Below, piece by piece: positions 11,029 through 64,000 of a stretch of 64,000 nt of DNA. Both the position numbers and the translations under genes were made by a program. Under the pieces are notes generated by a model that did not search any database, was not told where the DNA came from, and worked only from the letters and a program-made list of their open reading frames with translations. The stretch lies in the NCBI GenBank assembly GCA_047967505.1, contig CM106538.1; one strand, given 5' to 3'. Position 1 is the first letter of the stretch; the number at the start of each line of letters is the position of its first letter. Source of the stretch: Dipteris shenzhenensis. Its lineage: Eukaryota.

Positions 11029-11275
11029 ATGTTTAAAATCAAAGAATCATTCTTTTAGTGGAGGAATACAAACTCACATCACAAAGCACATAGCATTTTT
11101 TGGACAAGGTACTAACTCAATGTCTATTAATTCTTTCACAAAACAAATTGAAACATAATGTTTCGCTAATCGAATCTAACCAAATAGTGTCCAAATATAA
11201 ATCAGAATGTAGGTACAAATGTTTTAGTTGAGCATTTGTGTCTACAACTCTAATTAACAAGATCACTCACATTCC

Positions 11276-15532: not shown

Positions 15533-15779
15533 AACAAATAAGTGAACTCATGTCAACTGTGTCCCTCAATACTATATATGTCAAAGTACCAAGGTATGCT
15601 TTTTTCTACAAATCCACTTACAACTTTCTCAACCTTCTTCACATTTGTGTCTTTCCTGTAAAAAACCCAAGCAATATACAAAATATCATCTTTATAATCT
15701 TTACTGTACATTATCAATAAACATATCTGAAATAGAATCTAGAATTGACATAGTAGATTTGAGAAAGCACTAGATTCTA

Positions 15780-19525: not shown

Positions 19526-19600
19526 TTGTAAAGCATTTTCATCCTAAGTCATACCATCAGATATCAATATTGAACTATAACAAATGCTATGTACTATGCA

Positions 19601-22600: not shown

Positions 22601-22750
22601 TGCAATAAAGGTGATCCTCCACATTGGGAATCTGTTGATGCTATTGTATGGTTATGGGTTCCAAAATGTAACCTCTCAAAGAAGGTCTCCTCGAAGAGCA
22701 ACAACCTCAATCTCCACAATGGAGTGAAGGTACTTGAAAAGCATGACTTT
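19601..22750 (+). pseudogene. DDE transposase (Sola-like/DUF7869-type) with two N-terminal En/Spm-accessory-like domains
   Basis: IHDKMDQKK, LQLDNCGSENKNRYLFAYL, FLMVGHTHEDID..FS; Cys motifs CCKQNCC, VCCRAW, FSKCGLC; N-terminal VAIGTI..GVPL..V.V..LPFP..ALG..VRW; frameshift near 21100, in-frame TGA 21964-21966; acceptor TATGCAG near 19600. Confidence 0.75.
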
Positions 22751-32600: not shown

Positions 32601-35508
32601 CCACTATCATAAGTGGTGAACCATTCCCTATGGGGAGTAACATGGAATGAAGCACCAGAATCCAAAATCCAATCCTGGGAATATGCATCATCTGAAGTGG
32701 TAAGCAACTCTGCAGATAAACTAGACATGAAGAGAACATCATTGTCACTATCACGTGTGACTGCATTGATCTCCTCGATCTTCACTTTTCCTTTGTCCTC
32801 CCTTGGACTCTCTTCCTTTTGATTTGCACCCCAATTTGCATTCTTTTTCTTATCCTTTTGCTCTCTTTTTAGCTTGTAGCAATCCTTTTTCATATGGCCC
32901 TTCTTGCCACAGTGGTAACACTCAATGTTTCATGCCCTGGATTTGCTACGAGACTTCCCTCTTTCTTGGGACTTCCCCCTGAACTGTGATCTGCCCCTTT
33001 GCACATTTAAGGCTGCATCCTGCTTGTTGCCATCCATAGACTTCCGTCTAATCTCCTCGGCCAACAAGCTACCCACAACATCATCAAATTTCAGTACTCC
33101 ACCAGGTGCAGAGTTACTGACAGCTGTACGGAAGGTATCCCATGAGGATGGCAATGAACATAAGAGAAATATTGCCTTAGTCTCCGCATCAAAATTCATT
33201 TTCTGAGCCTGAAGCTGGCTGAAAATAATATTGAATTCATTCAAGTGAGAAGCAATGGAGACCCCTTCCTTCATCTGCAGCTCAAACAACCTCTTCATGA
33301 GGTAAACTTTATTAGAGGCAGTTTCCTTTTCATAAGTGGCACACAATTTCTTCCACAAATCTTCCGTAGTCTGCTCATTTACTACTGTGAAATAAACTGA
33401 CTCTGCAAGATGAAGTCTAATAGTAGACTTTGCTAATGCATCCAACTCATTCCAATCATCCTCAGACATATCCGCAGGCTTAGCTTCAATACCTGCCAAG
33501 GGTTTAATCTGCTTCTTTTGAATAAGCACATCCCTTATTTGTTCTTTCCACAAAGAAAAGTTTGTCCCATCAAACTTTTTAATGCTGAAAAACTCCTTTT
33601 CAGACATGGAAGAGGATGCCATGATGCAAATAAAGCAAAATCCCAAATGCTAGTGCCTGCAAGAGAGAATCACACCAAATACTAGGTGCACCCAAATGTG
33701 TATGCCACAATAGAGTGAAATATCACCAAAACTCAAAACTCAAAGCATCTGACTCATGTGCATATAATATGCATCCATATGAGCAAATCTGGCCCAAAAG
33801 AAAATGCCAATAAGTGCCAAATGACTCAAGCATAAACACTGTCCACTGGCATATGCATCAATAATGTCTCATCCAAGAGAGCATAGCACTATCAATGCGT
33901 CCTGCAATGTGTCAAAGCTGTCCCTCAGCATAAAATAGCATCCATGTGCAAAGCGTCCATAAAAATAGCATCCCACAAGGCAATTTGGGCCTATCAGCGC
34001 ATCCAACAAGGACCGCAATGCATCCAAATGGCCTATAAATCATCCACTGCAACCCAATGCATACCACGAATGAGCGCACATTGCTCAAAATGCAACCAGA
34101 GTGATCTGCATAAGGTATGCTCAAGAAATCATAGTCCCACGGTAATGAGCGCTACTGAAAATAGAACCTGAGATGCTTCAAAACATGGGCGCCATTGCAT
34201 AATCGGACTCAGCAAGAAAATCTGCAAATATCTCTCTTCTGCCAGAACTCCAAAATCCCAACCAATGAATGAGAAATGGGAGTCAACACTTATCCACTGC
34301 CATGTGGCATAAATCTAAGGTTTCAAAACCTTAGTATGAAAAATGCATAACAGAGAGACGAAATCGAATACACAGAGATTTATAACTCTGAAAATCCTCC
34401 ACCGAATCACGCAAGAACTGATAGGTAGGGGTTTTTGGGCGTCCGGAACGCAATGGGACAGACGGTTTTGGAAACCGTGGTCTCAATCACTGGGTCCAAC
34501 ACACGGACTGAAAAACGTTTTTGGAAACAGAGCTATCTGTAAACTCCACCGGAGTGCGAATGATGAGCAACATAGAAGTTTTAGGACCTCTTGAGTCCAC
34601 CGGAACTGACAGATCTGCAAATGGTTGCTCCAAACTTGAGTTCCAACACCCGGGCAAAAAACGCAGGAATTGACACAGTGACTCAGAAATCCAATGAAAT
34701 GATCCTAGATTCAGGAATGAAGGTGTTTCCAGGCTCCTGAAGTAATGTGGACACCAAAAGCAAGCAATAGTTGCCTCTACAAGTCAATACGGAGTCTCTG
34801 TCATCGAACGGAACAGGGAAAAGCTCAAAAAACGACTTTTTCTTTGAAAGCTCTTAACAGGCTCTCAAAACCACTTCGCAAAGCCAAAACTTTTCCAAAG
34901 GTTCCTCCAAGGTCTCTGCTCACTCGGATGCAAGTAAAGTCACTCACAAAGCTTCCCACAAAGCTTCTCCTTCCTCCCACAGAGCTGCTGAGCTTCAAGC
35001 ATTCACGAACGCTCAGTTAGATCACTTGGGCTCTGATACCAGTTGAGAGTGCTCTCAACGGAAGCAAGAATGGAAGAAGGAGAGAGAGAGACAGAGAGAC
35101 AGAGAGCCACACAAGTTTTGGTGGGTGCAGAACCACCCTAATCTTCTTTTTCATTCATTTATATATGTGTTTGAGTATTGTACATAACCGGGGTTAAGGC
35201 ACAGTGACCTTTAACCCCCACAAGTGATATTGAATCTCAATATGTTTTGTGCGAGCGTGGAACACAGGGTTCTTTGCAATCGCCATGCAACTCTGATTGT
35301 CACATGATAACTGCGTAGGCTTGCTCTGTAATGCACCCATTTTCCCTAAGATCCTCCTCAACCACACTGCCTCGCAAGAAGCAAAGCATGCTGATTTGTA
35401 CTCAACCTCGGTAGAAGAAATAGCAATTGTGGGTTGCTTCTTGTTGACCCATGACACAACTCCAGATCCAAGTGAGAAACAGTAACCTATCACTAATGTC
35501 CTGCTGTC

Positions 35509-38128
35509 TGTTGGAATACTGAAAAGAAAGAGTAGAGTGGACACAAACTCAGAATACTTGCTTATAGAATGAAGAAGAAAGAGGTCCTTAAGTAGGCACC
35601 TCATACAAGGTCACTAACATCACTGATGACCTCAAAGCTCCACAATCATCTCCTCAATCTGCTCCTAGATTCACTCAATCATCCTATGTGGCTTTTCCAC
35701 CACCTAACTGTGCCTCTAGCACTCACACATAGAAACATAAGGTGTGCCTGAGGCATACACCTTGAGATATCCCAACAAACCCCCCCTCAAGGAAATGCCT
35801 CAGGCTATGTCAAGGATACATCTAGTCTCATAGTTTCTCATGCCATCTCATGGTGGTCAAGGATTAATCTATGGCTAGGTTCTCATGCTAGCAAGGGTTC
35901 CCTTGGGTGTAAGGTAAACAAAAAGGGATACAAAAAGACCTTCCAATGGTTATCTCCCCTGCATGTACATGCACACAATGTCTGCAGGAGGTACCATGGA
36001 GCAAAACTACACATGGCCTACATCATAAGGTGACCAGAGGTGTTTACAAAACACACAAAACACAATAATTTATTTCATTCATTTTGGAGGACTATCCAAG
36101 CTGAGTACCTTGACATAAAAAGAGAGATCTAGAGCATACATAGAGATGTGTTTAAAATGCATAATCTTCAAAGGATGCCTCATCTTGTGGAGGCTCATTA
36201 ACTGTAAGTAGATTTGCATTTTCTGTCTTTGCTTTGGCTCTGCAAAACTTCTCATGATGGTTGTTCTTGCCACAGTGCTTGCATGGATTAACTTTGAAGC
36301 AGTCCTTTGAAAGGTGATTTGTCTTTCCACAGTGATTGCAAGGAGTATACTTGCCCTTCTTGACTTTTACAGCATAAGCAGTGTCATTGCCTTTCCTTAG
36401 ATCCATATGCCTTTCTTCTTCTTGGAGAGCAGAGATAATGCCTTCAAGGTTAGGATTGGGAAGATTCTTCAAAGTGCTAACAATGTGATCAAAACTTTCA
36501 GGCATACTCTTAAGTAACACTGCCATAGCATCATCAGGGGTGATAGGAGAGTTGATAGAAGCTAATTGAGTCATAAGACTCCGCATATAGTTGACATGAG
36601 CAGCTAAAGTAGTATCACTAGCCATATTTAATTCAAAGAAAGAGATTTTAAGTGATAGTTTAGAGATGTGAGAGCTTGCACCAAAAATCATGTCTAGCTT
36701 CTGCCAAGCTTCCGAAGGAGACTCCAAGTCAGAGATATGGTGTATATAATCATCACCCAAAGCAAGAGCAATGATACCATATGCCTTTTCTTCTCTTGCT
36801 AGATCCCTTGCCGGTCGTGTCGGTGTTGAGGATTCTCCAGCATTGGAGGCTGTAGAAGAAGCGGTAGGAGTGGGTTTGACAAGTCCCCATAAGTTCTCCC
36901 GCATCAATGCAAATTTCACCTTCATTTGCCATGTATGGAAGCCCTTTCCATTGAACTTCTCAAGATTAAATATGGTAGCCATGAGAGGGTCTAACCCAGA
37001 TATTGGGCAGTGTCTATCTCTCTTACAAGGCAAAAATAACTGAAAGACTTCCAAAATATGAGCACTTAATGTAGCAAATAGTAGTGACTAGATTTCAAAC
37101 AATGATGCTTCTTCTTACATGCTTCATAGAAGTGGATGAAATAAACACTTTCCAATCAAAACCAGGTCTAGCAAGTCAAAACAAAACTGAATCCACACTT
37201 GTACTGAAGTTATTAAAAGCTTCAAAAAACCAGAAATGCTAGAGTAGCATTTTATGTAGCATCATCTTCAAAAACTTGTCCAAAACTGTCAAAACTGAAA
37301 AGCTGAACTTGGAGGGCTTGTAGCTCACTCTTCAAAGTAAGGAAAAGAGGGCTTTCTAAAGCAAAAGAAAGCTCATATACCAAAGAAGGTCCAGCACAGA
37401 GGTTGGACAAAATGGTGCGCACTTTTGCCCGGGAGAGTTGCTACAGGCTGAAATTGAGTTTTGATAATTTCTCCCTTGTTACTAAACCAAATGACCTGAA
37501 AAATGGCTCAAAATCTTTGTCTTGAGGTCGCCCATCTACTCCTAAGAGGGTTCAGGCAATGGTGGAGCAGGCAGGGAGTATTGAGCAACACAAGAAATTC
37601 GCTGTTTGGAGAATGGCAGCCACCACAGACGTTTTTTCTTCAATTACTTGCAGGTGGAAGTTTGCCCATACTAGAGGAGTTTCCAGCTCAGAGGGTTTGG
37701 GAAATGGTCATTTGTAGATGGAGAACCAAGCTCTCAAAGATTTTGGGAAGAAAGAGGAAAATGGAGAAGAAGAAGATGAAGAAGAAGATGATGATGTGGC
37801 AGAAATGGGCTCAAGGGGGATCAAAGGGCTCTGATACCATGTTGGAATACTGAAAAGAAAGAGTAGAGTGGACACAAACTCTGAATACTTGCTTATAGAA
37901 TGAAGAAGAAAGAGGTCCTTAAGTAGGCACCTCATACAAGGTCACAGACATCACTGATGACCTCAAAGCTCCACAATCATCTCCTCAATCTGCTCCTAGA
38001 TTCACTCAATCATCCTATGTGGCTTTCCACCCACCTAACTGTGCTTGTGGGCACCTAACTGTGCCTCTAGCACTCACACATAGAAACATAAGGTGTGCCT
38101 GAGGCATACACCTTGAGATATCCCAACA
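35509..38128 (-). mobile_element. Gag-only non-autonomous LTR element (TR-GAG-like), element E
   Basis: LTRs 35509-35777 and 37840-38128; TSD CTGTC; PBS 37828-37839; PPT about 35780-35790; no pol. Confidence 0.9.
36152..36982 (-). CDS. Copia-type Gag with two CCHC zinc knuckles
   Basis: EKFNGKGFHTWQMKVKFAL..LW, LLKSMPESF, CNHCGKTNHLSKDC, CKHCGKNNHHEKFC. Confidence 0.9.
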   Translation of the reverse strand: MATIFNLEKFNGKGFHTWQMKVKFALMRENLWGLVKPTPTASSTASNAGESSTPTRPARDLAREEKAYGIIALALGDDYIHHISDLESPSEAWQKLDMIFGASSHISKLSLKISFFELNMASDTTLAAHVNYMRSLMTQLASINSPITPDDAMAVLLKSMPESFDHIVSTLKNLPNPNLEGIISALQEEERHMDLRKGNDTAYAVKVKKGKYTPCNHCGKTNHLSKDCFKVNPCKHCGKNNHHEKFCRAKAKTENANLLTVNEPPQDEASFEDYAF

Positions 38129-38868
38129 CTGTCCACATCTCCTACCCAATCTGAGTCACAGAATCCAGTCAAGATGCCATAATCAAGTGTGCCTTTGATG
38201 TATTTCAACACCCATATCCCTGCCTTCCAATGGTTCTCTCGAGGCTTATTGGAAAACCTACTTAGTACACCAATCACAAAGCTGATGTTTGGCCGCATGT
38301 TGAACAAGTAAATCAAACTGCCGACAAGCATTCTGTACTTTGCTTCGTCCACCAGTGGTGATGAATCCTCGTTTGAGAGCTTCACGTCAACCTCCATAGG
38401 GGTGCCAACTATCTTGCACTCAGCCATGCCAAATGCCTTCAATATCTCTCCAGCATACTTCAGCTATGATATGATCTGTTTTGGCTCTTGCCGAACTTCA
38501 ATCCCCAAACAGAAATGCATCAGTCCGAGGTTTGTCATTTCAAACTCTCTTCCTAGCAAATGCTTTGCCTGCAATATCTTCTCTTAATGGTTCCCTGTTA
38601 TGACAAGGTTATCCACAGAAAGGACCACGATCATACACCTGCCTCCTTCTCTGAAGATATACAAATTTGCATCAGATGGGCTCCTCCTGGACTCGTTTTG
38701 CAGAAAGTAGGCATCAATCCGCTTATACCACCCTTGTGGGCCCTGTTTCAACTCGTAAAGTGCCTTCTTCAATTTACAGACTTTACCTTCTGAACCGGGG
38801 ATCACAAAACCTGGTGATTGTTCCATGTATATCTCCTCCTTGAGATCTCCATTCAGAAAGGTAGATTT

Positions 38869-41690
38869 TGTTGAGAGATATGGTGCCATGAGCACATGTA
38901 GAGCAAAGGTATGGGCAAAGGATAAGCTGCCACATGGCATGGAGGAGATATCCCACATGTGAGCAAGCAAAATGGATGTAAGTACCCTCACCTATAAAAG
39001 GGAGGTTCATTTGAAGTAATATCAATCAAGCACTTTGCACTATCTCAAGATTCTCTTTATGAGTCCAAGCTAATCTATCTTGGAACCTAATTGACTTGAG
39101 ATACATGTCATGAGCACTCTCTTCATCATGTTTCCACATAGGTTCCATCCACCTTAGAGTGCTCCATAGATCCTCAGGCACACATGTTTTGTCATGGTAT
39201 CAGAGCATAGGTTTAGCTCTCCTAGTTTAGCTCATTAGTAGTTCACTAGGATTGCTTCCATTCCTAGATTAGTTGTAGGCATGTTTTAGGAGCTCATGTT
39301 TTCTTCTAGGTTAGTTTCAGTTTTAGAGAGTTTTTTTCTTGAGTGATATTTGTGAGAGAAAATTCTGTCCATAGGCTTCGGCTCTTTTCGATTCTTCTTG
39401 TAAGAAATTCATGAGTGAGGTTCTTTGAAGGAGAGGATATGTATCTGTGAGATTGAAAGGAAGCTAACATCTTGAAATAGATCATGAGCTCAAGGAGACG
39501 AGATTGAGAGAAGGAAATGTCTTAGGATCAAGATAGAGAGAGAGATAGAATTCACGGAGAGTTTGACCGAAATGATTCAGTGTTGTTGATGAAGGAATCC
39601 ATGCAGTTTTCTACCGCAACGACGATTAATGGAGCTTGTCCATTGTAGCTAAGCATTTGGATTGCAGCACTTCAATGACCAGCTACGGCCTCCATAGCTC
39701 CCAGCGACCCTGAGTCACGAAGTACCACCTCTGCAGCCTAGCAGAGTGCCAAGGGTAGATGCGACTCTACTGCGCCCTCCAGCGAATGACAAGTCCTACG
39801 TGAAGGCCAGCCTTCAACAGCCTCTGATGCACCGAGGGCTCCAGCGCCAACACCGACAACAAGCCTCACAGGCCAGCAGCCAAAGCAGCGCATGTAGCTT
39901 CGAAATCTGCAACAAACATTGCCCGTGACCCGTCGAACCAGCTCATTCAGCAACCATCCTCTGCATCAACGTCCATCTTTGGATCGGCCAGCCTCTCGAG
40001 AGCCGACCTCTACCAGCAACGACTAGCTTCAACAAGAAGAGAGTGCCAAAACTTTTGGGTTGCCTTCTATGCTCTTTGTAGCTCTACTTAGTTCCTCAGC
40101 ATGAGCGCCAACGAACGGGACAACATCAACTGGCGCTGCTCCAACGACATCCAGCTCTAGACTAGTGCAACGCCCATGCTCCAAGGTGCCCACGCTAGAG
40201 CCTCCGGAAAGCCTTTCAACCGGCACACGAGGCGACTTGACACAAAAGGCAGCAACCTCCATCTCCAAACGTGGCGACTTCAGTGACAGAAGCAAACAAC
40301 AACAACGAACGGCTCCCTCCATCGACAACGCAGAAACTCCCTACAGCCAACCAAGCTCACGATAGTAACTCGGACGCTACGACTTTTTTAAAAGTCCTTT
40401 CCTTGGAGGTACGACAGCTTCAATCGTGCCCGACCACGACGGCCTCAACGGCAGCTTCAATCTCTATCCTTATCGACATCTTTGCACAGAGTCTATCTCT
40501 CTCTACACTCCCTCATCAACACGTGTTAAGATAGGACTTAACTGTGGTTAGATTACAAGATAACCATGGTTAGGTGTGGTTCAGTTAGTGGGCTTAGGTT
40601 CAGTTACTGGAACTACAGTAAAACCTTGGGTTAACTCATTTGGCTTAAAAGTTTGACACATGGCAGATAAGACCTGACTGTGGTAAGGTTAAGGTCACCC
40701 ACCAAGGCAGGGTTAAGGTTAGCTAAATGCCACCTAAGCATGCACAGTCAGTAGTGCCATCCAAGCACAGTCCCTTTGTAAGCACAGTATGGAATTCAGC
40801 ATGTGAATCCCTGTGCCACATCATCAAGACCCCCTCTTCTTCACAAAAGCTTCAACAAGCCATAACTTCCAATCCAGGAAGAATTTGGACATGCTCCAAA
40901 AAGGAAAAGTGATCGTCTTTTCAAGCTCTACGCGTCTGTCATGTTAGAATCATTGTATGCAATTAGACACTGCCAATATTGAAAGAATTCAATTGGTAAG
41001 ACCTTTGCAACCATTGGAAAAAGCAAAGCATAAATGCAAACATCGATGTAAAAAGCAAGCCAAAACCACAAGTGCATGAGATGACCATAGCAGGAAGCAT
41101 GGCATCCACACATAAAGCACCAAGGCACATGGAAGAACAAAGCATCATGCATCCAGCTACGTCAAGCGAAGAAGCAAACGCCATCGACATGAAGCATTGA
41201 AATGCAAAAACCTTGCCAACCTTGCCTATGTTTTGTAATCAAACCTGACCACCTGAGAGTAGCTATGAAAGCACCCAGGGGAGGTATTGACATGTAAAAG
41301 CCACACTTGACCACCTTAAGTAGCATGCATGCAGTAGCCAAAGGATTATGGCACCAAGGGGAGGTGTTGAGAGATATGGTGCCATGAGCACATGTAGAGC
41401 AAAGGTATGGGCAAAGGATAAGCTGCCACATGGCATGGAGGAGATATCCCACATGTGAGCAAGCAAAATGGATGTAAGTACCCTCACCTATAAAAGGGAG
41501 GTTCATTTGAAGTAATATCAATCAAGCACTTTGCACTATCTCAAGATTCTCTTTATGAGTCCAAGCTAATCTATCTTGGAACCTAATTGACTTGAGATAC
41601 ATGTCATGAGCACTCTCTTCATCATGTTTCCACATAGGTTCCATCCACCTTAGAGTGCTCCGTAGATCCTCAGGCACACATGTTTTGTCA
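38869..41690 (+). mobile_element. Non-coding LTR element (TRIM/LARD-like), element F
   Basis: 326-bp LTRs at 38869-39194 and 41365-41690 with 1 visible difference; TSD GATTT; PBS 39195-39206; PPT 41356-41364; no gag/pol motifs seen. Confidence 0.9.
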
Positions 41691-42059
41691 GATTTTACAT
41701 CCATCTAAAACACGGGCCATCTTCCCTGGGCTGCTAAAGCCAAAACACTGTGAATTGTGGTTAGTGGAGCTGTGGGAGCAAAAGTATCCTAATAATCAAA
41801 ACCATGTACCTGTGTGAATCCTTTCGCCATGAGCCGAGCCTTGTACTTATCCAACAAGCCGTCGGACTTGGTCTTGTACACCCACTTGGTGCCAATTACC
41901 TTGCATTTTGGTGGTCGATCCACAAGGTCCCAAGTGTTGTTCTTCATTATGGAGCCATTCTCTAACTGCATAGCCTCCATCCACCTATCAGTTCTGTCTT
42001 TTTCTTTTACTTAAGTGTGATCCTCTTTTTTTAATTACTTACTGTGCATTCTTATGTCT

Positions 42060-42431
42060 TACAGCATATCATCTACAACCACCTTCCCTATTTTGTCAAA
42101 AAGTATGGATGCCCAGCAATTTGGTCTACCCAAGGCATGGAGAAGTCTCACTACATGGCACGTAATGCATTTTTCAGACACACACAACACTATGGAGGGA
42201 GTCAGAAGGCAAATAGTCTGAAGGAAGTCTTCCAATGGTTTTACCGAGGCATACTATAGAGGCTGCATGCTAAAAGAAAAGTTGCTAGCTCCAAAATCAA
42301 GCTTGCTTTTCTTCTATCCCAAAAGCAAAGACGAAGACAAGCTCTAGACAATTCAATGGCAGCAGAGAGACATAGACAATGGAGCGAATCGAAGATATTT
42401 AGAAACCATAAATGGACAAGTAAACATGAAT
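42060..42431 (+). pseudogene. Last exon of a RAG1/Transib/Chapaev-like transposase
   Basis: HIIYNHLPYFVKKYGCPAIWSTQGMEKSH resembles RAG1 [29 protein letters not shown] (catalytic Glu region); preceded by acceptor TTACAG. Confidence 0.6.
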
Positions 42432-42757
42432 AGGACTCATTTGCAACTTATTGGTGTTATGTCCACATGTTTTCAAACTCAATCAATAGAAATTTTTTTT
42501 GTGGAACAAGTGACTCTTGGTGTTATGCATCAAAAGTATTTCTTTTGTGAAACATATGATCTAAACGTAATACAATTTGTTCACAATTTCAATATATTGT
42601 TTGTTTAATATTTAACGACACCACTCTATCTAAATGTACAAATCATTTGATCTTCAACTTATTGTTCATTTATACAAGATCATACCAGATATCAAAGACT
42701 TTGTACAAATCAGTTCAACTTTAATATAATGTTTGTGCTATATTTGATGACTAAATC

Positions 42758-44440
42758 CTATTTCTCCCAGGGCCTGCCGATCGAAACTCTCTTTTTTATC
42801 TTGATTGGAGTCTTTTTCTTCTTTATTGGCTTGATGTCGACTGTCTTTTTATCAATGCTTGCCTCTGTTGCTTGTCTACGAGGGGTATCCTTTTCTTCAG
42901 CTGTCTTCACCTGTTCCTCTTCTTGGATTGTATGGCCTGATGCAATCATGGGTGGCTCTCGAAACCTTATGAGCTTGTGTTTTCCATAGCCCTCCAGACA
43001 TTTGGGCTCCTTAACACCACATGCTAATGCATAAGAAGTGTAAGACAAAAAGTAAGAGGCCCTAGAGGCCTGCTTATTCACATAATCTCCAAATATATCT
43101 ATGGCAGACAACCTCTCTATCAAAATGATCTTTTCCTTTTGCCATGAAAGATCATGTCCACCTAAAGACCTGGACAAACATTTTAAGAAGTAAACAATGG
43201 CTTCTCCATTGTTGCTCAACTGCCTATGGTAAATCAAGATCTTAGCATTGCCTAGATCATGAATATAATGAGCTAGGCCTGACATTTTGTGAAACCCAAC
43301 CGGCCTGCTTCCACTTGATCTGAGGAATGTGTCATCCTCAATTTGTAGCTGCCACATATCAAAAGATTGGAGTGAGACAATACACAACCTACAAAAACAA
43401 AGTTAAGTAGAAGACAAAGTATTTGATTTGAAGTACCTTCTCATTTTCATTAGCAACAAGTAGTTCATCTTTCCAAAGATTTATTCCTCTCCCCTCTTGT
43501 CCAACCTCTTCTTTAGGCTTTTCTGTGTATAGTGCTGAGAGATTCATAGCTTCCTGTGTGAGCTAGAAGGCAGCTTCATCTGGCTCTTGGAACTTTTCAG
43601 CCTCTTTGAAACAAAATGTAAGGGCCTCTACAGGATCAAAAATTGTTTCCAAAGCCAATAGTGAATGGTCATCCTCTATGCCAACCTCCCTTGAAGCCTG
43701 GGAAATAAGGGAAATGGCATAGTCCTCCCTCAAATTGAACATACACTCTATATCATGGAGGAAAACATAATCTTTTCCACCAATCAAGACACCTGGAAGC
43801 ATGGGCACTGCATAGTTGCTGCTCTGGACATCAAAATCTTCAACTAGCTCTGCTCCCCTCAGAGTTTTTGTCCTCAGTTGTACAAGGTCAAGAGCAGCCA
43901 CTTGCAACCCCTCATCCTGAAGGTTGATATCTTCTTCTTGCTCTGCCATTTCTATGACCAAAGAAACATCCTCCTTTTCCTCTGCTTCAGATGTGTCTTC
44001 TTCTTCAATCTCCTGCCCTTGTTCATCCAAAGACTCCTGACTGAAGACAATGTACATAAGGAATGCCATGGTTTCCTCAAGCACTCTGCACTTTCTGGTG
44101 TGCAAGTTACAGTTGAATTTATATTGATCAGGCCAGTTGTCAAATCTTTTGTTCACATGGTACCTCAGCCTGTCAATGGAGACAATATGATTTATATGCA
44201 CAAAAACCTTTTCTCCTTTCATAATTCTTCCTGCCTCTGTCAGTTCTTTGAAGGTATCCCAATAGTCTGAAAGAAAATCTTTGTGATGCTCCAGTACAGA
44301 GCTCATTGTGAACTCCATGTTAAAAATACTATGGTATATATGGAAGTTACTCTGAGCCTTGCATTTGTGAAGAAACTCAAATAGGAGCAAATCTGGAGAC
44401 TTGCCCTCTTCTGGTTCCTTTTGTTTTGTGATGGAAGAAT
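42758..44440 (-). pseudogene. Two-exon gene of unknown function, putative transposon accessory gene
   Basis: 275-aa and 209-aa ORFs in tandem with a short candidate intron at about 43390-43435; acidic middle, basic C-terminus; no family recognised. Confidence 0.45.
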
Positions 44441-44750
44441 CAGCACTCTGCTCCAGTCTCTTCTTTTTGCTTGTTCAAAAACTTATATACTTTGAATTCT
44501 ATATGCTGACATATGCAATCAGTGAATGCATAGGATATCACCAGATAATTCCTTCATGAGCTCTCATGACTCACCTGGTGATTGCTGTGGTCTAATAATA
44601 GCAGCAAAAAAGTCCAGCTTCCTCTTGAAAGGTGGGGCCTGGGAGTCAACTGTTCCAAAGCAAAAACATCTCTCATCATCAAGGAAGAATTCCACAGGGC
44701 TAAAGATAGCAAAACAATGAGGTAGAAGTGAGAACCAAATCAGACACAGG

Positions 44751-46372
44751 AATTTGCAGCAAAACACGATGGGGGACCATTTGGAAAATCATTTGGACTC
44801 TCCTCGCATTTTGTTGCAAATTCTCCAGTTCTGTTCATGTGCATGTCAAATCAAACACTAGGTTCATCTCATTCATTCCTGGACAGTATGATCTCATATG
44901 CAAGAGAAATGCTGGAGTTGAGTGAAGCTTTTCATGAGGAATGTGTCAACAACAGGAATTTGCAGCAAAATGCGATATGGGCTATTTAGAGATGTATAAA
45001 CCACTCTCCTTGCATTTTGTTGCAAATTTCTAGGTTCTATTCATATCCATCTCCAATCAAATTCCTGGGTGATTTACCACATTCTTGGACAGTATCAATT
45101 GAAAATGTAACAAGAAGGGTGGAGTTGAGTGAAGACATTTGGACATCAAAAATCCAATGGATGGAAGAAATATATGTCAAAAAACATTGAAAACAATCTA
45201 GAATTCTGACCTTTTTTTTCCTTTTCCATGCTGTTGGAGTTGCACTGGTGAATCTCCTACTCTTTCACTAGCTTGAACTCTACACTCTAGGTAACCGGGA
45301 GATCTGGCAGTGGTAGTAGTCTTCAAACAGGTTGCAATCTAGATGGAGTGTGCTGGGTAGGAAAGGATCAAAGAGAAGGAAATGGAAGATGCGAGGGTTG
45401 TGGCAGGGATGAAAGATTGGGAGGCAGGGGAGGGAAGAGTGGTTGTGGAATTGATTATGAAATCATGAATGGCACAAGTTCCAAGGCATAAAGTGTACCT
45501 TTCACATGTGCCAAATTTCAAACTCCAAGAGATCTGGGTCCCATCCACACATGTGAAAAACAACTACATTCCACACGTGTGGGATTTAGAAGATGCCTTA
45601 TTTGTATTTGCACTTATTTGTGGTATCCTGTTTCAGACCTCTTGCCCTCCAGTCTCTACTCTCTTACCTCCCTACCTCCATACTCTGCAACATCAACATC
45701 CTGACTAGCAGCATAGGTTCATCTCCAGCACAAGGTACTCATCAGCAGCACAGCACATCCACAGATAGATTTCAGGTCAGTAACAATGGGTTCTTCCCTT
45801 AGTCTCTGCAATCTTCTTGCCTACCATAGAAACAATCCATCCTGCATGGAAATGCATAGACTTAGTCCATATTTTATTTAGTTGTCAAGACAGAGAAATC
45901 ACTGTAGGAATGTAGATCTTCAAGTGTGATATTTGCATGTGAGGGTAAAACTGTACTTATGGGTTCTTCCTTTAGTCTGTGCACACTTCTTGCCTTCCAT
46001 AGACTCAATCCATCCTGCATGGTTATGCAAACACCTTCAAATGACTGAAGGCATATTCCAGCATGCTGCCTCATGAATTTGCAGGAAAACGCGAGGAGAA
46101 GGCCTTAGGAGTTCCAAATAGTTGAAATCACGTTTTGTTGCAAATATTGAAATGTTGCTTCATCCACCCCTGTCATTCTGGTTTTGTGACTTCCATAGCT
46201 ATCCATGGCTGTACTCTTCTTGCATAAACTCCATTCATACTGTATTTAGTTGTAAAGACAGAGAAATCACTGTAGGAATGCACCAGCATGTCATTTCAGG
46301 AATTTGCAGGAAAACGCGATTTGGACCTGTTAGGAATTTCAAACTCCTCGTATCGCGTTTTATTGCAAATTT
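44751..46372. repeat. Four related hairpin elements AATTTGCAG(C/G)AAAA..CGA-N~30-TCGC..TTT(G/A)TTGCAAAT
   Basis: At 44751-44822, 44957-45028, 46076-46146 and 46301-46372. Confidence 0.8.
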
Positions 46373-46477
46373 TTCTATGTTGCTTCATCCACCCCTATGA
46401 TTGCCTTTTTTTTGTCAAAACATGTTCTCCATGTTTGTAATCTATTTCCAATCCTTTGTATGCAATTTTTCAGAGTG

Positions 46478-48556
46478 ATGGCCAAAACCAAGTCAACTGC
46501 AAGGAAATCTGGCAAAGGGCCAGGGCTTGCAGCAACAGCAGCTGGGGCAGGTACCAAGAAATTTAGTGTGCCTCCAAAGGGAAGAGCTGCACATGGCAGG
46601 AAGGGTAAGCCAATGAGCCTGCTCAAGCAAAAGGCCAAGAGATTGAATCATGGTGCAGGTGTGCTAAGGGAGATCAGGAAGCAATAGAAAGCTATAGGCT
46701 TTGCAAACCCCAAGGCACCTTTTCAAAGACTGGTGAGAGAAATATGTGATAGTTGGCACCTTGGGTTTAGGTGGAACAGAACTGCCATTCTTTCCTTACA
46801 GGAAATGGCAGAGGATTACTTGGAAAAATATTTTGAAGATGCAATGCTGGTAGCAGCCCATGCTCACAGGGTGACTTTGATGGCCAAAGACTTCAACACT
46901 TTGTCCAGAGTGAGATGGAGGTATGACAAGCTTGTTCATCCTGTGGAATGGCAGGACATAAAGATGAGAGACATATTGTTAATTCCACCTACAAGGAAGT
47001 TGAAGGTAGATGAGGTTAAGGTTGTTGAAGTAACCCACTCAAAGAACACCAGAGGGAAGGCTGCTTATGAGGAGTCACTGAAGCAGCAAATAAAAGAAAC
47101 AAAATCTGTTATAGATGTGGAGACTGGAAAGAGGGAGCTACAGATACATAGAAGGTTGCAGGAGCTGGGCCCTAATATAGTTGTCCATATTGAGGATGAA
47201 TTTTCAGTGAATGATTTTGACTTGACAAAACCATGCTTGGCAGCATTGGCTCATAAGAATGAGTATTGCTCAGATACTATCATTCTTGAAATGCTCTAGT
47301 AAGTGTCTATTATTTTACATTTTTTGCGAAACAATCCTCCTTGTACCTCCTTTATACCCTACCTTAATTATTTTTTGGTCCTATGCAGCATGATGAGAAG
47401 CTGGCTTCACACCTCTGTACAGCATATAGTCCATATTATTGATCCTGCCATTTCTTCTAAATTAAGAGATGCAAAGGAAACTCCCATTAGTATTTCCAGC
47501 TGGTTCAGAAACTACAATTTTGAAGTAATTGATGTTTTGCTACTTCCATACAATAACAGGTATGTGGGTGACTGCTTCTTTTAAGATTCTTCTTTAAGAT
47601 TGAGAACTCTTGTAGCCTTTAATTTCCTAATGCTTTTTTCCTTATGCAGTGACCACTGGAGTTTTGTTTCTATTGACATCCAGCAGAAGCAATGCTTTCT
47701 ATTCAACTCTCTTAAAAACACACACAGAGAGCTGAAATTGTAAGTTCTGTGTGTGCTTTTTGAACTTAAAACTTCATTATTTTGATATCATACTAACTAA
47801 ATTATACATATTGCAGTTGTATTCGAAGGCTTCTAGATGCATTGGATCACTGTCCTCCCAATGTCTCTCTTTTGGATTTAATAGAGCCAATAAATCTAGA
47901 GGTAAAAAGTCGTTCCCTCTACTGATGTCTATTTCATGCTATGTCTTTGAACTTATTCAATAATTTTGTTTTGTTCAGATGCTAACAGTTTCTAACATAT
48001 CTTTCCAACTGTACAGACACCACAACAAGATGATTCAAGTAGCTGCAGATGGAGAGTGCTGATCGGTGCAAAATATCTACTTTCAAGCTATTTTGAGAAA
48101 GAACAGCCAGACCTTGTAAGAAAAAATAATTTTCATTTAGCTTGAAGATAATTCATAATGATACAAAGTGTTCTAAATTATCATCTGCCATTGCAGATGA
48201 AAGAAGATAGCTTCAGCTCAAACTATGTATATAATTTTAGAGCTCATACAATTTGGAGGTTTTTGAGCTATGCCTCCCCCAAACTTATTGTACCAGCTAC
48301 TGTGGAGTTGGGTGAGAGCTCTAAAGTACAAGAAGGTGTCATACACCTTGATGCCACAGATGAAGCACCTAATTCTAAGGAGGAGAAGCCACAAGAGCAA
48401 TCACCTAGTGCTGAGGAGGAGAAGCCACAGGAGCAAGGACCTACTGCTGATGTTGTTGAGGAGAAGATGGAGCAGCAGCAAACAGATGCTCCTGGGGTAG
48501 TGGAGGAGACAATGGAGCAACACCAACATACTGTACAGGACAGGATGGAGCAGTAG
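46478..48556 (+). pseudogene. Histone H3-like / Ulp1 (C48 SUMO-protease) fusion, six exons, one premature TAG
   Basis: MAKTKSTARKS, VLREIRKQ*K, PFQRLVREI, LQEMAEDYL..FED..HAHRVTLMAKDF; then NEYCSDTII, LLLPYNNSDHWSFVSID..LFNSL, TPQQDDSSSC. Exons 46478-47298, 47389-47559, 47650-47739, 47817-47901, 48017-48114 and 48198-48556 splice in frame with GT-AG. Confidence 0.85.
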
Positions 48557-48779
48557 AAAAAAGATTCTCCAAAAAATGATGATAGGGAGATCTTGGACCA
48601 TGTAGAGTAGCCTCTGGATCAAGCTATACATAAATAGAAAATGGATGTCAGAAATATGTTCTACATGTTTAACTAAACAGTTTTGTACAAAATCTTACTT
48701 GATTGAATACAAAACCTTTGTTTATGGAGTCTGTGTTATCTCAATTTTTAAATTTTCAATGTCTTTGCATTTTATTGAG

Positions 48780-50161
48780 CTCTCTCTTCTTTTGAGCAAC
48801 TGCAAAAAAGAAATATGAATTAGAGCGGTAAAGTAAACTAATAGCAATGCTTAATGAGACTAGGATAAATCAGATGGTGTACCTTTTTGTTGTTGTAGAT
48901 AAATAAAAAGTCGTTTGAAATAGAACCTTCTATCTCAAACAGAATGTCATTGCGCAATTGAGCTACGGAGCAACATTCTCTTAATGAGATATTGACTAGC
49001 ACATCACCATTCTCAACAACATCAATATCAAGAAGTTTATTTTCTACACCAAAAGAATCTTCATCTTAATCCATTGGGACTAGTTTTGTCCCTAGCATTC
49101 GACTGCGCTTGTAATAAAAAGAGAAAATAAAATTTTGTGATGCAACCATGTACTTCAGTTGCATAGAAGGTTGGACAACCTCACAAAACACTGAACTACA
49201 TGTCTTCTTATCCCAACCTTTATCCAAAATTTGTGGCATGCATGCTGAACTTGTTGCTTTAACTGTGAACATTGTTTTTGAAACCTTCACTGGAAAGGTA
49301 TTAAACAAGTCCACAAAAACTATGAGAGGCATGCATAAAGAAATTTTTACTATCCTTGTGGCAATATTGGGCCTCAGAGCTTTCTGTACTTCTTTGAAAA
49401 GCTTGGCCCTATATGCCTCTGTATTACTAGAATGTGGGTGAGGCCAATCCACTGAATTCCATGCCAGAAGGTCTTGTTTTATTAACACACCATGTGTGTT
49501 AGCATTGTCCAGCAACTGATAAAAATGATCAGTAAAAAATATACCCGATTGAGCTAGCTCTATTGCACATCGACCTTGGTATTGTTGTTCTCCTATCGAT
49601 CCATGCAGAACATCTATAAATCCTAGAATATAATCGATGTTTTGCCATGTCTCATACGATGAAGGATATAAATCTGAAATAAAACAACACAAGAATGTCA
49701 ATAAGCAAAGAGAGAAAGCTTCATCTTAAAAATCCATACACCTCGTAAAGAAAAAAACCACAATAGAAAAATATACAATTAAGCCTGTGTTGCAGAAGAT
49801 CTTTTGGATAGTCTTGGAAGACAAGTTCTTTATGCATGTACATGTGCTAAATCAAAACTTCTTTCACGGATATCTTCCCTCTGGTGATTTTAAAATCTCG
49901 TACTCTTCCCTTCCATGATGCCAAGAAAATGTTTTTTGTCTGGGGTCTTTTTCTTTTGCTAGGATGCATGAGCACCCATGCTCCTTTCGAAACACTAAAC
50001 CTTTCCCAAGTTCCTTCCATTTTGACTGTACTTGAATTCTCTACCGATGAAATAGAAGAAGCAAGTCGATGGGGTAAGGATGTGTGGTATAATTCTGCCT
50101 TCATAGCATTATCATCCACAGAGCGTCTTCCACAAGAACGGCCATGGTTTTTATTCACCAT
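48780..50161 (-). pseudogene. Probable BAH-domain protein, spliced, with nonsense codons
   Basis: GAWVLMHP..WKGRVRDF..EVLI*HMYMHKEL..NYLYPSSYETWQNIDYILGFIDVL..FFTDHFY; intron at about 49674-49776. Confidence 0.5.
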
Positions 50162-50299
50162 GGAGATTTTCTGAATCTATAACAATAGCAAAGTAATGTA
50201 AATAAGATAACAAATTGAAGTTTCAAGAAAGAGAAAGTGGTTGGTTGAGAGCTTATTTTTCCAAACCATAAAAGGCCCCAAAATGAGCTCCCTTTTTTC

Positions 50300-53112: not shown

Positions 53113-53693
53113 TTAAATAAATTCATAAAATGTGAAAATTTTTACTCCAGGCGTAATGTCTTCATGAGAAACTATCTCAATAAAACCTACATGTCCATCG
53201 TCTCTCCAAGATGGACATGTAGGATTATAAACCCAGACTACATTCATTAGGCTATCATCATAGAGGAAGCTATTAATATACCCTGCTACATTTCCATTAA
53301 GAACATCACCCACAATGCCTCCACAATGTAAGTGTTTTGTTCCTCCTCTATTGCATAAGTATGCATTCGAGGATAATATAAACATAATTGTTTCCATACG
53401 TCATGGTCATATCTTGCTCCTATGTAAGGAAACAAAGAAGTTCCCTTGGAGATCTTACAGAGGCTGAAAAGAACCAAGCTGGCATCACTTAAAGGTGATT
53501 GTGAGACATTATACATTCTTCCATAATATTGAATAGGCTCGTTTATTGGAATTGTTAGTTTACCCTTCCAACCACCATTCTTTGAAGGATCAAAATATAT
53601 AATCCTTTGAGCCTCTAAACTTGGTGGACAGTTCAAATTACATGAAATTCTTTCCATTGTGTTCATTTCACACTCTACATTTTTATAGAGCAT
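53113..53693 (-). pseudogene. Second SET-domain gene, frameshifted, homologous to 10467-11028
   Basis: FDPSKNGGWKGKLTIPI, FPYIG, YPRMHTY, IVGDVLNGNVAGYINS, EDITPGVKIFTFY. Confidence 0.75.
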
Positions 53694-56074
53694 GTAATAA
53701 TTTCCCCAAGCCCACTATAACAACAAGAAATAAAGTAGTTTAGATATTTTTAATACTCCTATATCTTTAGTATGCATAAATCAGCTAACATAATATGAAA
53801 AGGCTTACTTTTTGGGTCTTACATTCTTCTTTCCAATCTTCGGTAGGACCATGTTTAATAAGATGTCTATTGATTCAATTTTGTGACTTTATAATATATC
53901 CATTGCACTTATTTCAAGGACATGCATGCCAATAAAACTTAGTGCACTCCATTTCTTTGTTGCACTTTTGTTGATAAAATTCAACCAAATTTCTTGGTCA
54001 GTCATCTCCTAAGATGTAAAATTATTTTGTGAACGATATCTCATGGCTATTTAAAAATAAATCATGATTGTAATTTGAAATGATAAATAATGAATACATA
54101 AGAAGTATAAAGAGATTAAGATTTCACTCACAAGATCCAACTCGAATAGATGATGACAGACCCATTGCCATTGTATTATGAGATGAACCTAGAACAAAAT
54201 ATAGATATCAGAGGAAATGAAAGAAATGAAAAACACTAAATATAGTACAAGTACATTCATTTTAAACAAAAAATATGAAATGCAATAACCTAGATTAGCA
54301 ACTAATTGGTTCTCCAGTAGAGCTTTAGTGAAAGTAGCCCCATGAGATGATCCTACAAAAATTAAAAATGCATCAAAGGCCAAATAGACAATAAAGATCA
54401 TAGTCCATGATTGGACTTGGACTACATGATCCTATAATAGATGAATCAATTATAGAAATTATATTTAAGACCTTACATACTTTTTCAGATTGAAAGAATT
54501 TATAAAATGATACAATTTCACTTATAATATGGACAAATGGCTACTCTTCTTACCTTTGAAAGAAGTTCGATGAGTTTGTGCTAGCATAGGGGGAGAATTG
54601 GCAGTAGCTAATGCTCCTACACCAACAGGAGCCACATGACATGCCTTCTCTTGAGAGCGCACGCCATAATTTCTTTTTGTTCATTTTGAACTATCCATTT
54701 TCTAAATCCATAAAGCCATTAGACACAACATATGCATAAATTAGCGCATATGAAGAATTTACATTAATAAACCTTCAAATTTACATCAACAAATGCATAC
54801 TATTAATCCTAATCCATAGCATGTTGAAACCATGTGCCAAGAATGCACCCTTATGTCCATAAATCTTAGCATTTCCAATGGTTTCATGATTACCCTTTTG
54901 ACGCCCAATGCTGTGGCCAAATAAAAGCATTTTAAAAAATGGTTTCTTTTTCCAAAATAAATCATTTCCTTTAATCCAAGGTGACCAAAAGTGAGTACCA
55001 CCATGAAAACAATCCAAACCATTTCAAAGTACAAAAACATTTCTCCATTTGTTACTAAATTATGCACAATATGCTCATCTTTTTCTTCTACAATTCTTTT
55101 CGAATCTAGGACGTCCCAAATAAGGTAGCATATTCATCAAAGTTGTGTATGCTATTTGGTGGAGCCATTAAATCCCACAATCATTCAATCAAGTGCATGC
55201 TCAAATCATTTCAAATGAGAAAAATTATAAATGGTATTATCATCTTTTCATCCAAATTTATCAATGCAATTTAAAGGCTACTCACTAGGGCCAAATATGA
55301 GTGGATGGAGTGGCATAAGTGCAAAGAATGCAAGTGCATAGAAAGATAATTTCAAAAGCATATAATAAGGGGTCATCACAAGATAATAGCATAACACGAG
55401 TGTAGAAATAAGAATCAAAACATAGCATAGCGTAGCAAGCATAGCATAACATAAGTGCAAAACATAAGTACATAGCATAAGCATACAAAGGATTCATACT
55501 GATATTGAGATCCTTTCTTAACTCATATTGATATGAGTCCATGCACATGTCAAACACATAGCACACATGGATGCTCTCCCATAGACCGTGCAATCAACCA
55601 ACAACATTCCTCATATATATTGAGTTAGATACAATTTTGATCTACATGATCATGAAGTTCATTATGGCAACATCAAGCTCGACACCATTTCCTAGCCATG
55701 CATTAATTAAACAATATAGATGAGCAAACTCCATATGTAGATATAGATCAATACTGTACTCAATTATAGGTCTAGGATAAACACACATCAACAATGAAAT
55801 CATAATTGTCCACGATTGTAAGTACATTAATCATGATGATGTGCATGTGGGAGGCACTATCATCAAAACTCTAGCATCCAGCTTTTGTGTATGGGTGGCA
55901 TGCAAGAGGAAACATTGGCATTAATAGAGAGAGTTCAAGAAAGCCATATGGTCTAAGTTTAAATCTCATATGGGTTGAGATAGACCAGAATCCTACTTTC
56001 TCAATGCCCATGGATGATGCATGGTGAAAAACAAGGAAATATTCATTCCAAGGCATGAAAATGACATTAGATGG

Positions 56075-61600: not shown

Positions 61601-62861
61601 AAAACATTAGTGGGGTTAAACAGGGCCACAGCAAGCCCTGTTTTGTGCCCCACTAATGTTTTTTATTTAGTAATTACAAAAGAATGTTTTTTATTACAAA
61701 ATTTCCCTTGTGGAAAGGCTGATACAAAATCACTCAAATAAACCCAGTGACAGAAGCATATACATGTTGAAGATATACAACATTGTTTGTTACAAAATTA
61801 CCCTTTTGAAAAGGGTGATACAAAATCGCTCAAACGAGCCGATATACAAAAGCATATACATGGCAAAGTATATGCGAACTATTACTAATACTACTACTAC
61901 TAGTGCTCATCTGAATCATCATCCTCATCCTCGTTCTCATCTTACTGGCCTGATCCTTGGCCCTTGTGAGTTGCGCCTCATCCCTCGCCCTCGTGAGCTA
62001 TGCTTGAGACCCTTGGCCCTCGTTGAAGCCGTGTAAGGCTAATCCACCATCATCATCACTAGGGGTTTCCATTTTCTGAGCAGAAACTCCCGAGCAACAA
62101 GTGGACAAAAGGTAGGAGGGGTCAAAATATATAGGCTCAAGTCATTTTTGGGGAGCAAAAAAATCCAAATTATTTCAAGGAATATGTAAGTAAATATGAA
62201 ATACTAATAAATAGATATATATATATATATATATACCTTTATATAATATACATATATAATGTCCAAGTGGTGACTTATTTTATCACTTTCAAAAATGCTT
62301 TCTTTTCCTTTCACCATTGGTTGGATCGTGAAATTTTGAGCAAATATCCTCTTTATAGTTCCTCAGGATGACCTAAGAAAATAATATAATACTTTTTGAA
62401 TAGACCCTCTAAGTGTATTTTTCCAAAGGAATATGGTTTGAAGAGCTTGCCCCCCAACCCTATTCCGGCACTGGTGGAATACCCTTGGAGAGCCTATGCA
62501 GAAGGGGTCCTAACTTTTGCTCCTTATCTCAGATTGAGGAGCTGTAAAAATCATAAGAAAATAGAGTTTTTGAATCTAACTAAATGTAACATTTTCAAGG
62601 AAATGCATTTTTGTTAGTAAATCCCAATCAATAAATCCCAAACAAGCGAAAGTGATCTTGCCTTTCTTTAGTTGACTATAATAACAATGACTTTGCATGA
62701 GGGGCCATCTAGTTCACAGGCTTAGATTAGCATTGAGTCAGAATCAGACTACAATAACAATGACTTTGCATGAGGGACCATCTAATTCGCACACTCAAAT
62801 TAGCATTAAGCTAGAGTTAGACTGTAAGAACATATCATACTGTTAGAATTTTTTGATGATC

Positions 62862-63415
62862 GAGAAATTCTCCCATGGCAACCATCTAATCGCACGTCAT
62901 GGCTAGATAATGATGTATATGACTGCCTACACTAGGCTGGGCTACCGGCAAATATGGGTGAATATGCCACCGCTCCTCCCCCCTCATCCCATTGAATTAT
63001 TATGATCTTGGCTCCGATGACCAAGAAATTCTCCCATGGCAACCATCTAATTGCATGTCATGGCTAGACGATGATGTATATGACCGCCTATGCTAGCTTG
63101 GGCTACTAGCAAGTTGGGTGCATGTGCTACTGCTCCTCCCCCCTCACCCCATTGAATTATTATGATTTTGGCACTGCTGACCAATAAATTCTCCCATGGC
63201 AACCATCTAAATGGCTAGACGATGATGTATATGACTGCCTACGCTAGGCTAGCTGACCAGCAAGCTGAGTGCATGTGCCATCGCTCCTTCCCCCTCATCC
63301 CATTGAATTATTATGATCTTGTCTCCAATGACTGAGAAATTCTCCCATGGCAACCATATAATCGCATGTCATGGATAGACGATGATGTATATGACGCCAA
63401 GGCTGGGTTACCAGC
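62862..63415. repeat. Tandem repeat, about 3.5 units of 150-162 bp
   Basis: AAATTCTCCCATGGCAACCAT recurs near 62865, 63026, 63186 and 63337. Confidence 0.9.
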
Positions 63416-63441: not shown

Positions 63442-64000
63442 GGATGTGTCAATTTTATGAGCAAAAACCTATGAGCAGGTTTCTCTGAGCGTGTTTTTCA
63501 AGAGATTTAAAAATTTGTATTTCTTTAGGAAACATGGTTTTTATGCTTTTATTTTCACTAGAACTAGATCCCTTTATCATAAAAATATATAGACTAGTCA
63601 CTCATTCATTTTTACACAACATAAATTTTTTAATCTATAGACATCCCTTTGTACCCCTGTTATTACCTAAAAAAAGTGTTTAAAAATAATTCCTTTAAGA
63701 AACATCCCTCATAATCACTCTCAATGTAATAATACTATACACATATAATTACTTATTAATACATTTATATCATATGGCAATATCTTTCTAGTGTTTTTAT
63801 AGCATAAATAACAAGATATTTATGGACATGTTTCTAAAGAAGTTTAAATTACTATAAATAAGTATTAACTTGGGCTCATATATCACTCTCCTAAAATACA
63901 TATAATATTAATACTATATATGCAAGATTTTCCAAAATATAAGCCCTTAGATGTGCTCAAATGGGGTGTTCTGATCAATTTGAGTGGCTGAATGACTATA
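63442..64000. mobile_element. Second copy of the 3416-4431 non-autonomous element, running off the window
   Basis: Collinear with 3416-3955 starting from the same first base (GGATG(C/T)GTCAATTTTA). Confidence 0.9.

Follow-up and report, generated by a model that had tools for sequence, protein, structure and literature searches.

The H3-protease gene and its decayed copy

The window analysed here is a stretch of 64,000 nt from Dipteris shenzhenensis (contig CM106538.1, assembly GCA_047967505.1). Its plus strand carries, from an ATG at 46478, a gene in which a histone H3-like protein is fused to a C48 (Ulp1-type) cysteine protease. Spliced in silico, the six-exon model gives a frame of 541 codons with a single internal stop; all five introns are of the GT-AG type, measure 77-115 nt, have the phases 2, 2, 2, 0 and 0, and are lower in G+C than the exons. 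Exon 1 (46478-47298) encodes an H3-like N-terminal tail (to ~46645), the histone fold (~46646-46918), an extension conserved in the family (~46919-47068), a helical linker, and no more of the protease domain than its first ~28 residues. The C48 domain continues through exon 2 (47389-47559), exon 3 (47650-47739, with the catalytic His at 47654 followed by Trp and the triad Asn at 47705), exon 4 (47817-47901) and exon 5 (48017-48115, with the oxyanion Gln at 48026, the catalytic Cys at 48044 and an Arg codon at 48047). Exon 6 (48197-48556) supplies the final helix of the protease, then a low-complexity, acidic tail; the tails of the relatives are unrelated low-complexity sequence.

The stretch past the internal stop (46688-47296) matches Pfam Histone with E 3e-20, exon 3 alone matches Pfam Peptidase_C48 with E 0.0011 (19.3 bits, just under the cut-off of 20.7), and the spliced C48 part aligns with its homologs at E 8e-27 to 2e-23. 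In two metagenome relatives, L001 and L002, exons 2 (171 nt) and 3 (90 nt) have the same lengths as in the window, introns 1-3 occupy identical alignment columns in identical phase, and the last intron falls within two columns. The homolog alignment and the shared introns 1-3 rule out chance or mis-splicing as the source of the H3-C48 fusion, which is genuine. The initial annotation, made from the sequence alone, had described a full histone fold running through a linker into the protease within exon 1, and five in-frame GT-AG introns; the gene model and its Pfam matches bear this out. It had also named an end of the gene at the TAG at 47297-47299, which overlaps the first splice donor (GT at 47299), as an outcome that would speak against the fusion; since the relatives splice at the same site, this TAG is not the gene's end. 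L001 and L002 lack the fourth intron of the window (47902-48016) and have a single exon of 184 nt in place of exons 4 and 5 (85 + 99 nt). Found in the window lineage only, this may be an intron newly gained by a transposon gene.

A premature TAG at 46685-46687 on the plus strand lies in the alpha-N helix, where 31 of the 44 family rows covering the position have Gln, and the catalytic Cys is followed by Arg in the window copy, while Gly stands there in 4/4 homologs. Both had been called lesions, correctly, and they make the window copy a pseudogene. The third lesion proposed, Asn at the triad Asp position, turned out to be common to all five homologs that cover it (L001, L002, L003, P0066 and P0181), and is therefore a family feature. 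The coding sequence holds 2 CpG in 1626 bases (observed/expected 0.03, compared with 0.30 for the window), as expected for long-methylated DNA, and the TAG and Cys-Arg changes would both fit deamination of methylated C. The window copy is a methylation-decayed pseudogene, and the neighbouring genes in the window all carry stops or frameshifts too.

A family of relatives and its two domains

With exon 1 as the query, 180 proteins were fetched, 59 of which passed the coverage filter; after the query and two ordinary histone entries had been dropped, 56 family members remained. Their signature is an H3 whose final helix is followed by an extension of ~50 aa. Every named member comes from Adiantum nelumboides, at 13 locus tags, and these dispersed loci, most of them truncated or garbled, are spread over several branches of the tree. 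In one annotated protein of this species, P0066 (MCO5585592.1), Pfam Histone and Peptidase_C48 both score above cut-off (25.6 bits for C48 against 20.7), so that the domain pair predicted by the initial annotation occurs in a single protein. Among 79 metagenome loci, three (L001, L002 and L003) belong to the family, and the other 76 (L004-L079) have neither the extension nor the protease. Once spliced, L001 and L002 read through without a stop for 663 and 678 residues; they are the intact copies that had been thought worth searching for, and with P0066 they answer the objection that homologs might never show H3 and C48 in one ORF. Identity falls in the order of second, first and third codon position, both in the histone fold (71-75% at the second versus 31-41% at the third) and in the protease (53-63% versus 29-34%), and thus both domains are under coding constraint. 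Across the family the histone folds are only about 50-55% identical.

In a tree of 75 rows and 93 columns, which took in 34 family proteins and whose bootstrap had not fully settled, 34/34 family rows lie on one side of a branch (100/100), divided into deep subfamilies. The ARTK tail start has disappeared from some subfamilies (P0022, P0060, P0099); one subfamily without it (P0022, P0023, P0060, P0099, P0204) has also acquired a long spacer, rich in Pro and Thr, that separates its histone from its protease. Among 2250 candidate proteins longer than 478 aa there was one match, with no annotated C48, and most database entries stop at intron 1 because they are intron-blind gene calls. No relative came from prokaryotic genomes (0/130). 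Atlas matches for P0066 were C48 clusters at 0.75-0.76, which serve as leads only. A different multi-copy, divergent H3-like gene, with no extension or protease, occupies 71 loci among L007-L079; its neighbours at L017 (9944-11401, 13569-14138), which is apparently fungal, are hAT-like and gypsy-like ORFs on either side and, close by, a Tet_JBP-type oxygenase (E 1.5e-7). This suggests that H3 has been captured independently by mobile elements.

The window copy, L001, L002 and P0066 all retain His-Trp, Asn, Gln and Cys in their protease part and thus carry the Ulp1/SENP triad and oxyanion Gln. Asn is an accepted residue of the CE-clan triad, given as His(+Trp), Asp/Glu/Asn and Cys with the oxyanion Gln in the accessible part of PMC1847702. 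A structure model of P0066 (pLDDT 70, pTM 0.37) gave SENP5, SENP2, SENP1, NEDP1 and Ulp1 as top Foldseek matches (E about 1e-5), with Z 9.4 and rmsd 4.3 over 139 aligned residues for SENP5. The SENP rows (Z 8.2-9.4) and the NEDD8 protease (Z 8.1) lie within about 1 Z of each other, too close for the substrate (SUMO, NEDD8 or ubiquitin) to be named. By profile and predicted fold, the domain belongs to the C48 proteases.

The histone part was compared residue by residue over up to 50 family rows. Among residues that we take, from nucleosome structures, to be DNA contacts, R69 is kept in 50/50 rows, R72, R116 and T118 each in 47/50, R40 in 34/37 and R83 in 37/50. Among those we take to form the H3-H3 tetramer interface, D123 is kept in 46/50 and H113 in 44/50, and A114 and R131 are strongly kept. 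Most DNA- and tetramer-contact residues thus appear to be retained. R63 (1/50) and K36 (6/37) are largely lost, K115 is mostly His, C110 is substituted, and L126/A127 are changed. The family tail keeps ARTKQTAR and an R26-K27-x-x-P30-like motif. The initial annotation had seen equivalents of K4, K9 and S10 in the tail: K4 is well kept (31/34), K9 poorly (14/31, with Arg in 13), and S10 hardly at all (2/32).

H3 and H4 are a textbook pair, and pairing with H4 had been proposed for modelling. For P0003, an 84%-identical relative, the predicted complex with H4 scored 0.80, compared with 0.01 for the best of three controls; the runs agreed in at least 81% of contacts, and the partner pLDDT was at least 76. 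The mark used for such scores was reached by 51/78 solved and 2/108 mismatched microbial pairs, and by 39/65 solved and 2/126 mismatched eukaryotic pairs. The prediction supports pairing of this relative, and since H3-H4 complexes have already been solved, its score shows likeness rather than binding.

CENH3 proteins are marked by Trp at H3 position 84, loss of T107, a longer loop 1 and loss of Q68. The family has the first two (Trp84 in 49/50 rows, T107 left in 6/50) and lacks the other two, as loop 1 is of canonical length in 25/34 family rows (it is longer in 10/12 CENH3-like rows) and Q68 is kept in 21/34. At columns where canonical H3 and the CENH3 of Amaranthus (P0121) have different residues, the family sides with CENH3 at F84W (34/34), A98D (33/34), R63P (26/34) and V89L (29/34); overall 17 such columns favour canonical H3 and 11 favour CENH3. 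Mean fold identity is 43.2% to this CENH3 and 44.1% to canonical H3, and a sister grouping of the family with CENH3 has p-AU 0.50 on 93 columns. The CENH3-like group of the tree was picked by eye, with P0121 as the sole named plant CENH3 and with no fern CENH3. Judged from sequence, the fold appears equally near to canonical H3 and CENH3, and a CENH3 grouping is neither shown nor rejected. The CENH3-like residues and the family-defining extension both go beyond the initial annotation.

These data bear on a rival reading, in which the histone part derives from CENH3 or mimics it and the fusion is loaded at centromeres, where the protease would tune SUMO-dependent kinetochore or CENH3-loading factors and thereby steer insertion into centromeric chromatin or drive through it. 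The shared residues, the p-AU value and the two best PDB sequence matches of P0066, which are H3/CENP-A chimeras (all 60 listed matches are H3 or such chimeras), speak for it. So does Arabidopsis, in which, according to the accessible part of PMC12903445, SUMO and ULP1d regulate alphaKNL2-CENH3. The column count, the canonical loop 1, the retention of Q68 and the canonical-like tail argue against it, as do the narrow CENH3 sampling of the tree and the general point that divergent H3s are hard to separate from cenH3 (PMC3380720, as far as accessible). We regard this reading as rather unlikely.

A second rival, which we consider about as doubtful, keeps the H3 fold out of nucleosomes: it would act as a soluble decoy or tether for H4 or histone chaperones, or help the transpososome to capture target nucleosomes, and the protease would act on transposase or repair factors. 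The extension begins directly after helix 3, near the dyad, and is followed by a long linker helix in the P0066 model; this position, together with the R63 loss and the K115 and L126/A127 changes, could hinder octamer formation, and the C110 substitution also speaks for this reading. For the Ulp1 and OTU domains of Ginger, Mutator and Helitron elements a role in transposition has been proposed (PMC2836005, in the part available). Against it stands the strong retention of tetramer and DNA-contact residues in folds so divergent.

Neighbouring genes and transcription

On the plus strand, 42065-42430 is the last exon of a transposase, probably RAG1/Transib-like, with an internal stop; a truncated copia fragment, which ends near 41990, adjoins it in place of the lost upstream exons. 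The exon has 16 homologs, one of them a protein of Adiantum capillus-veneris, which matches Pfam RAG1 with E 0.0019 (16.8 bits, under the cut-off of 25) and for which RAG1 makes up 15 of 20 PDB matches (best E 0.013). The RAG1 alignment is gapless over a C-terminal motif of two His and the catalytic Glu (His-x4-His ... Glu). In the homolog P0188 the candidate acidic residues run from D290 to E587, a span that includes about 30 read-through intron residues, compared with 253 in RAG1 (PMC1131882). Queried with the 64-aa exon, P0188, A3 or A7, the PDB returned no RAG1 match, the RAG1 matches vanish with longer transposase homologs or profiles, and fold searches with a transposase model of low confidence (pLDDT 51.8) were uninformative and returned no match. 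The fern RAG1/Transib-like transposase family (P0188, P0189, P0233) is of interest for RAG evolution. The initial annotation had compared the locus with Mutator and CACTA elements; the weak matches found for a homolog of the adjoining exon point to RAG1/Transib instead, and no Mutator transposase was found among the ORFs scanned, which are a part of the window. At 5853-6779 (minus strand), 3416-3955 and 63442-64000 there are fragments whose motifs resemble those of a CACTA transposase, though with no Pfam support, and a 560-nt repeat of 90% identity near both window ends.

Broken ORF(s) on the minus strand at 42758-44474 lie divergent from the fusion gene and have high-depth coverage in related species. 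Downstream, a convergent gene (48838-49725, minus strand) belongs to no Pfam family and has a premature stop at 49066-49068. An intact homolog of 292 aa lies at the same position in L002 (L002:3655-4533; 45% and 41% identity in two parts). Its C-terminus had looked ubiquitin-like by eye, and searches gave no support for this. Beyond an inserted retroelement fragment there is a frameshifted SET-like gene (53113-53714, minus strand), 38-43% identical to a SET gene at 10470-11013, and we infer that it belongs to the same element as the fusion gene. Behind the fusion, L001 and L002 have NIF phosphatase genes that the window lacks at this place.

Four runs of related species (two DNA, two RNA) were mapped to 41995-50250 at 80% likeness. 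Both DNA runs cover 30/30 bins, and in X4 many contigs, between the transposase exon at one end and the downstream gene at the other, have similar depths of about 2,650-3,400, compared with 44-49 for two longer contigs. The shared depth, which is no copy number and comes with no spanning piece, suggests one co-amplified unit. No contig linking transposase and fusion gene was found in the related-species runs, nor were terminal inverted repeats or a target-site duplication found enclosing the fusion, the left part being deleted near 41990. The dispersed copies, conserved neighbours, high-depth coverage and transposase exon support the transposon context given in the initial annotation, and the context points to a multi-gene DNA transposon.

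A second multi-gene unit at 10470-22608 combines SET (Pfam E 2e-4), NIF phosphatase (E 2e-8) and a DUF7869 transposase (E 3e-42), which we take to be Sola-like, with ORFs at 13406-15547 (minus strand) and palindromic 46/57-bp tandem arrays at 15700-17100 and 18750-19500. Its transposase (19574-22608) was considered as part of the fusion unit and set aside, as a retroelement nest with a deletion separates the two. As its SET gene is a paralog of the one at 53113-53714, two transposase types may share chromatin-enzyme cargo. The LTR retroelement nest (23315-41990) contains near-identical repeat pairs (24144-24450/29332-29639, 99%; 38869-39194/41365-41690, 99.7%), which indicate recent insertions. 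Tandem repeats of 151-160 nt lie at 62855-63410.

The two RNA runs, from a related species, were read to 19% and 24%. None of the joints listed for them corresponds to any of the five introns of the fusion gene, so the check by junction reads that had been proposed gave no confirmation; coding depth is about 0-4 per direction, intron bins are covered too, and the run index lists no RNA run with the fusion sequence. In each of the two runs, 4 reads leave at 42064 into sequence that by eye encodes an upstream transposase exon, which means that the transposase is spliced and expressed in that species. The highest genuine RNA depth of 41995-50250, up to about 20 per direction, lies on the gene at 48838-49725. 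A 140x peak at 46421-46459 was rejected as an artefact, about 1,830 reads running on into unrelated sequence, presumably a chlorophyll a/b-binding mRNA.

The strong purifying selection and conserved introns of the fusion gene would also be expected of a domesticated host family of fern histone variants with many pseudogenes, next to which the transposase exon would be an unrelated insertion; no element ends were found, and in L001-L003 there is too little sequence for a transposase to show. The deep diversification within one genome, where 13 A. nelumboides loci fall on several branches, the uniform high depth across a four-gene unit, the variable neighbours (the NIF phosphatase among them) and the matching decay of all neighbouring genes make this improbable. 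Histones, SET proteins and Ulp1-like proteases are known from giant DNA viruses, and a relic of such an endogenous virus would account for the mix of histone, C48, SET and NIF phosphatase genes; the conserved spliceosomal introns, the adjoining DDE-type transposase exons, the lack of relatives among IMG/VR viral contigs (0/127 candidates for the fusion, 0/41 for the transposase) and of a viral hallmark gene among the ORFs read make it very improbable.

Proposed function and known systems

We propose, with a probability of roughly 45%, that the fusion protein belongs to the cargo of a transposon, forms a pair with host H4 and takes SUMO or a related ubiquitin-like tag off locally as an anti-silencing device, all functional steps being inferred. 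The gene would travel as a passenger in a large fern DNA transposon with several genes, for whose mobility the adjoining RAG1/Transib-like transposase is the probable agent, and intact copies of the gene would encode a divergent H3, the conserved extension, a helical linker and an active His-Asn-Cys C48 protease. Pairing of the H3 part with host H4 is probable; its entry into nucleosomes or H3-H4 tetramers has about an even chance. Entry would tether the protease to chromatin, where it could free silencing factors of SUMO or another ubiquitin-like tag and so keep the element expressed and mobile, by analogy with the service of VANC/KIU proteins to VANDAL elements. A bolder form, which we put forward as tentative, is a giant RAG1/Transib-like plant transposon with its own chromatin toolkit (H3-protease, SET, NIF phosphatase), whose H3 variant would sit in nucleosomes on element copies or at centromeres as a catalytic deSUMOylase.

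Ulp1 domains of transposons have long been known without a function, and the H3 fusion would point to chromatin as their site of action, a question that intact natural copies make testable. If nucleosome incorporation and activity hold, the fusion would be a new category: an enzyme-carrying core histone encoded by a transposon, offering a route of anti-silencing or centromere targeting and acting as a selfish protein that rewrites silencing from inside the nucleosome. The setting is that of large, TE-rich fern genomes, in which silencing is poorly understood. An enzyme-delivering histone would also be a natural design for chromatin engineering. In the open-access literature, a scope that leaves aside subscription papers, Repbase and supplements, we found no H3-C48 fusion and no such fern element, and the accessible parts of PMC8355894, PMC12973397, PMC10398659 and bioRxiv 2021.09.26.461848 make no mention of the fusion.

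Several known systems share single features with the fusion. CENH3/CENP-A resembles the family in W84, D98, P63, L89 and overall identity, and differs from it in that the family has the canonical loop 1 length, a mostly kept Q68, a canonical-like tail start and a long C-terminal fusion. In macroH2A, a linker connects a core histone fold with a macro domain, which is large and globular; it is a single-locus host variant, whereas the fusion combines H3 with C48, is multi-copy and element-borne, and has neither the H2A fold nor the macro domain. Transib and RAG1-like elements, to which the superfamily match is weak, differ from the unit, whose cargo genes take up about 8 kb or more, and no RAG2 was seen; 39 Transib-like proteins have been reported in plants (PMC9435367, accessible part), and these may include the neighbouring transposase. 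Ginger1 and Mutator transposases carry C-terminal Ulp1 (and PHD) domains (PMC2836005), and like the fusion they place a C48 protease on a DNA transposon, although there it is part of the transposase and here it is on a separate gene, fused to a histone. A further likeness is to KIU (Kaonashi)/VANC-Ulp1 of the non-TIR Mutator-like VANDAL elements, which, like the fusion, is an accessory gene of a transposon and has a conserved Ulp1/C48 domain; KIU elements escape silencing, and the role of Ulp1 is given as unknown in the accessible part of PMC13317346. Its partner domain is the sequence-specific VANC, which the fusion lacks, having a whole histone H3 in its place; the transposase is of the Mutator type there, compared with an adjoining RAG1/Transib-like exon here, and the fusion has a fern host and a His-Asn-Cys triad. 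Transposon-borne Ulp1 domains and histone fusions were thus each known separately, and what is new is that the Ulp1 accessory protein of a transposon has a histone for its putative targeting module.
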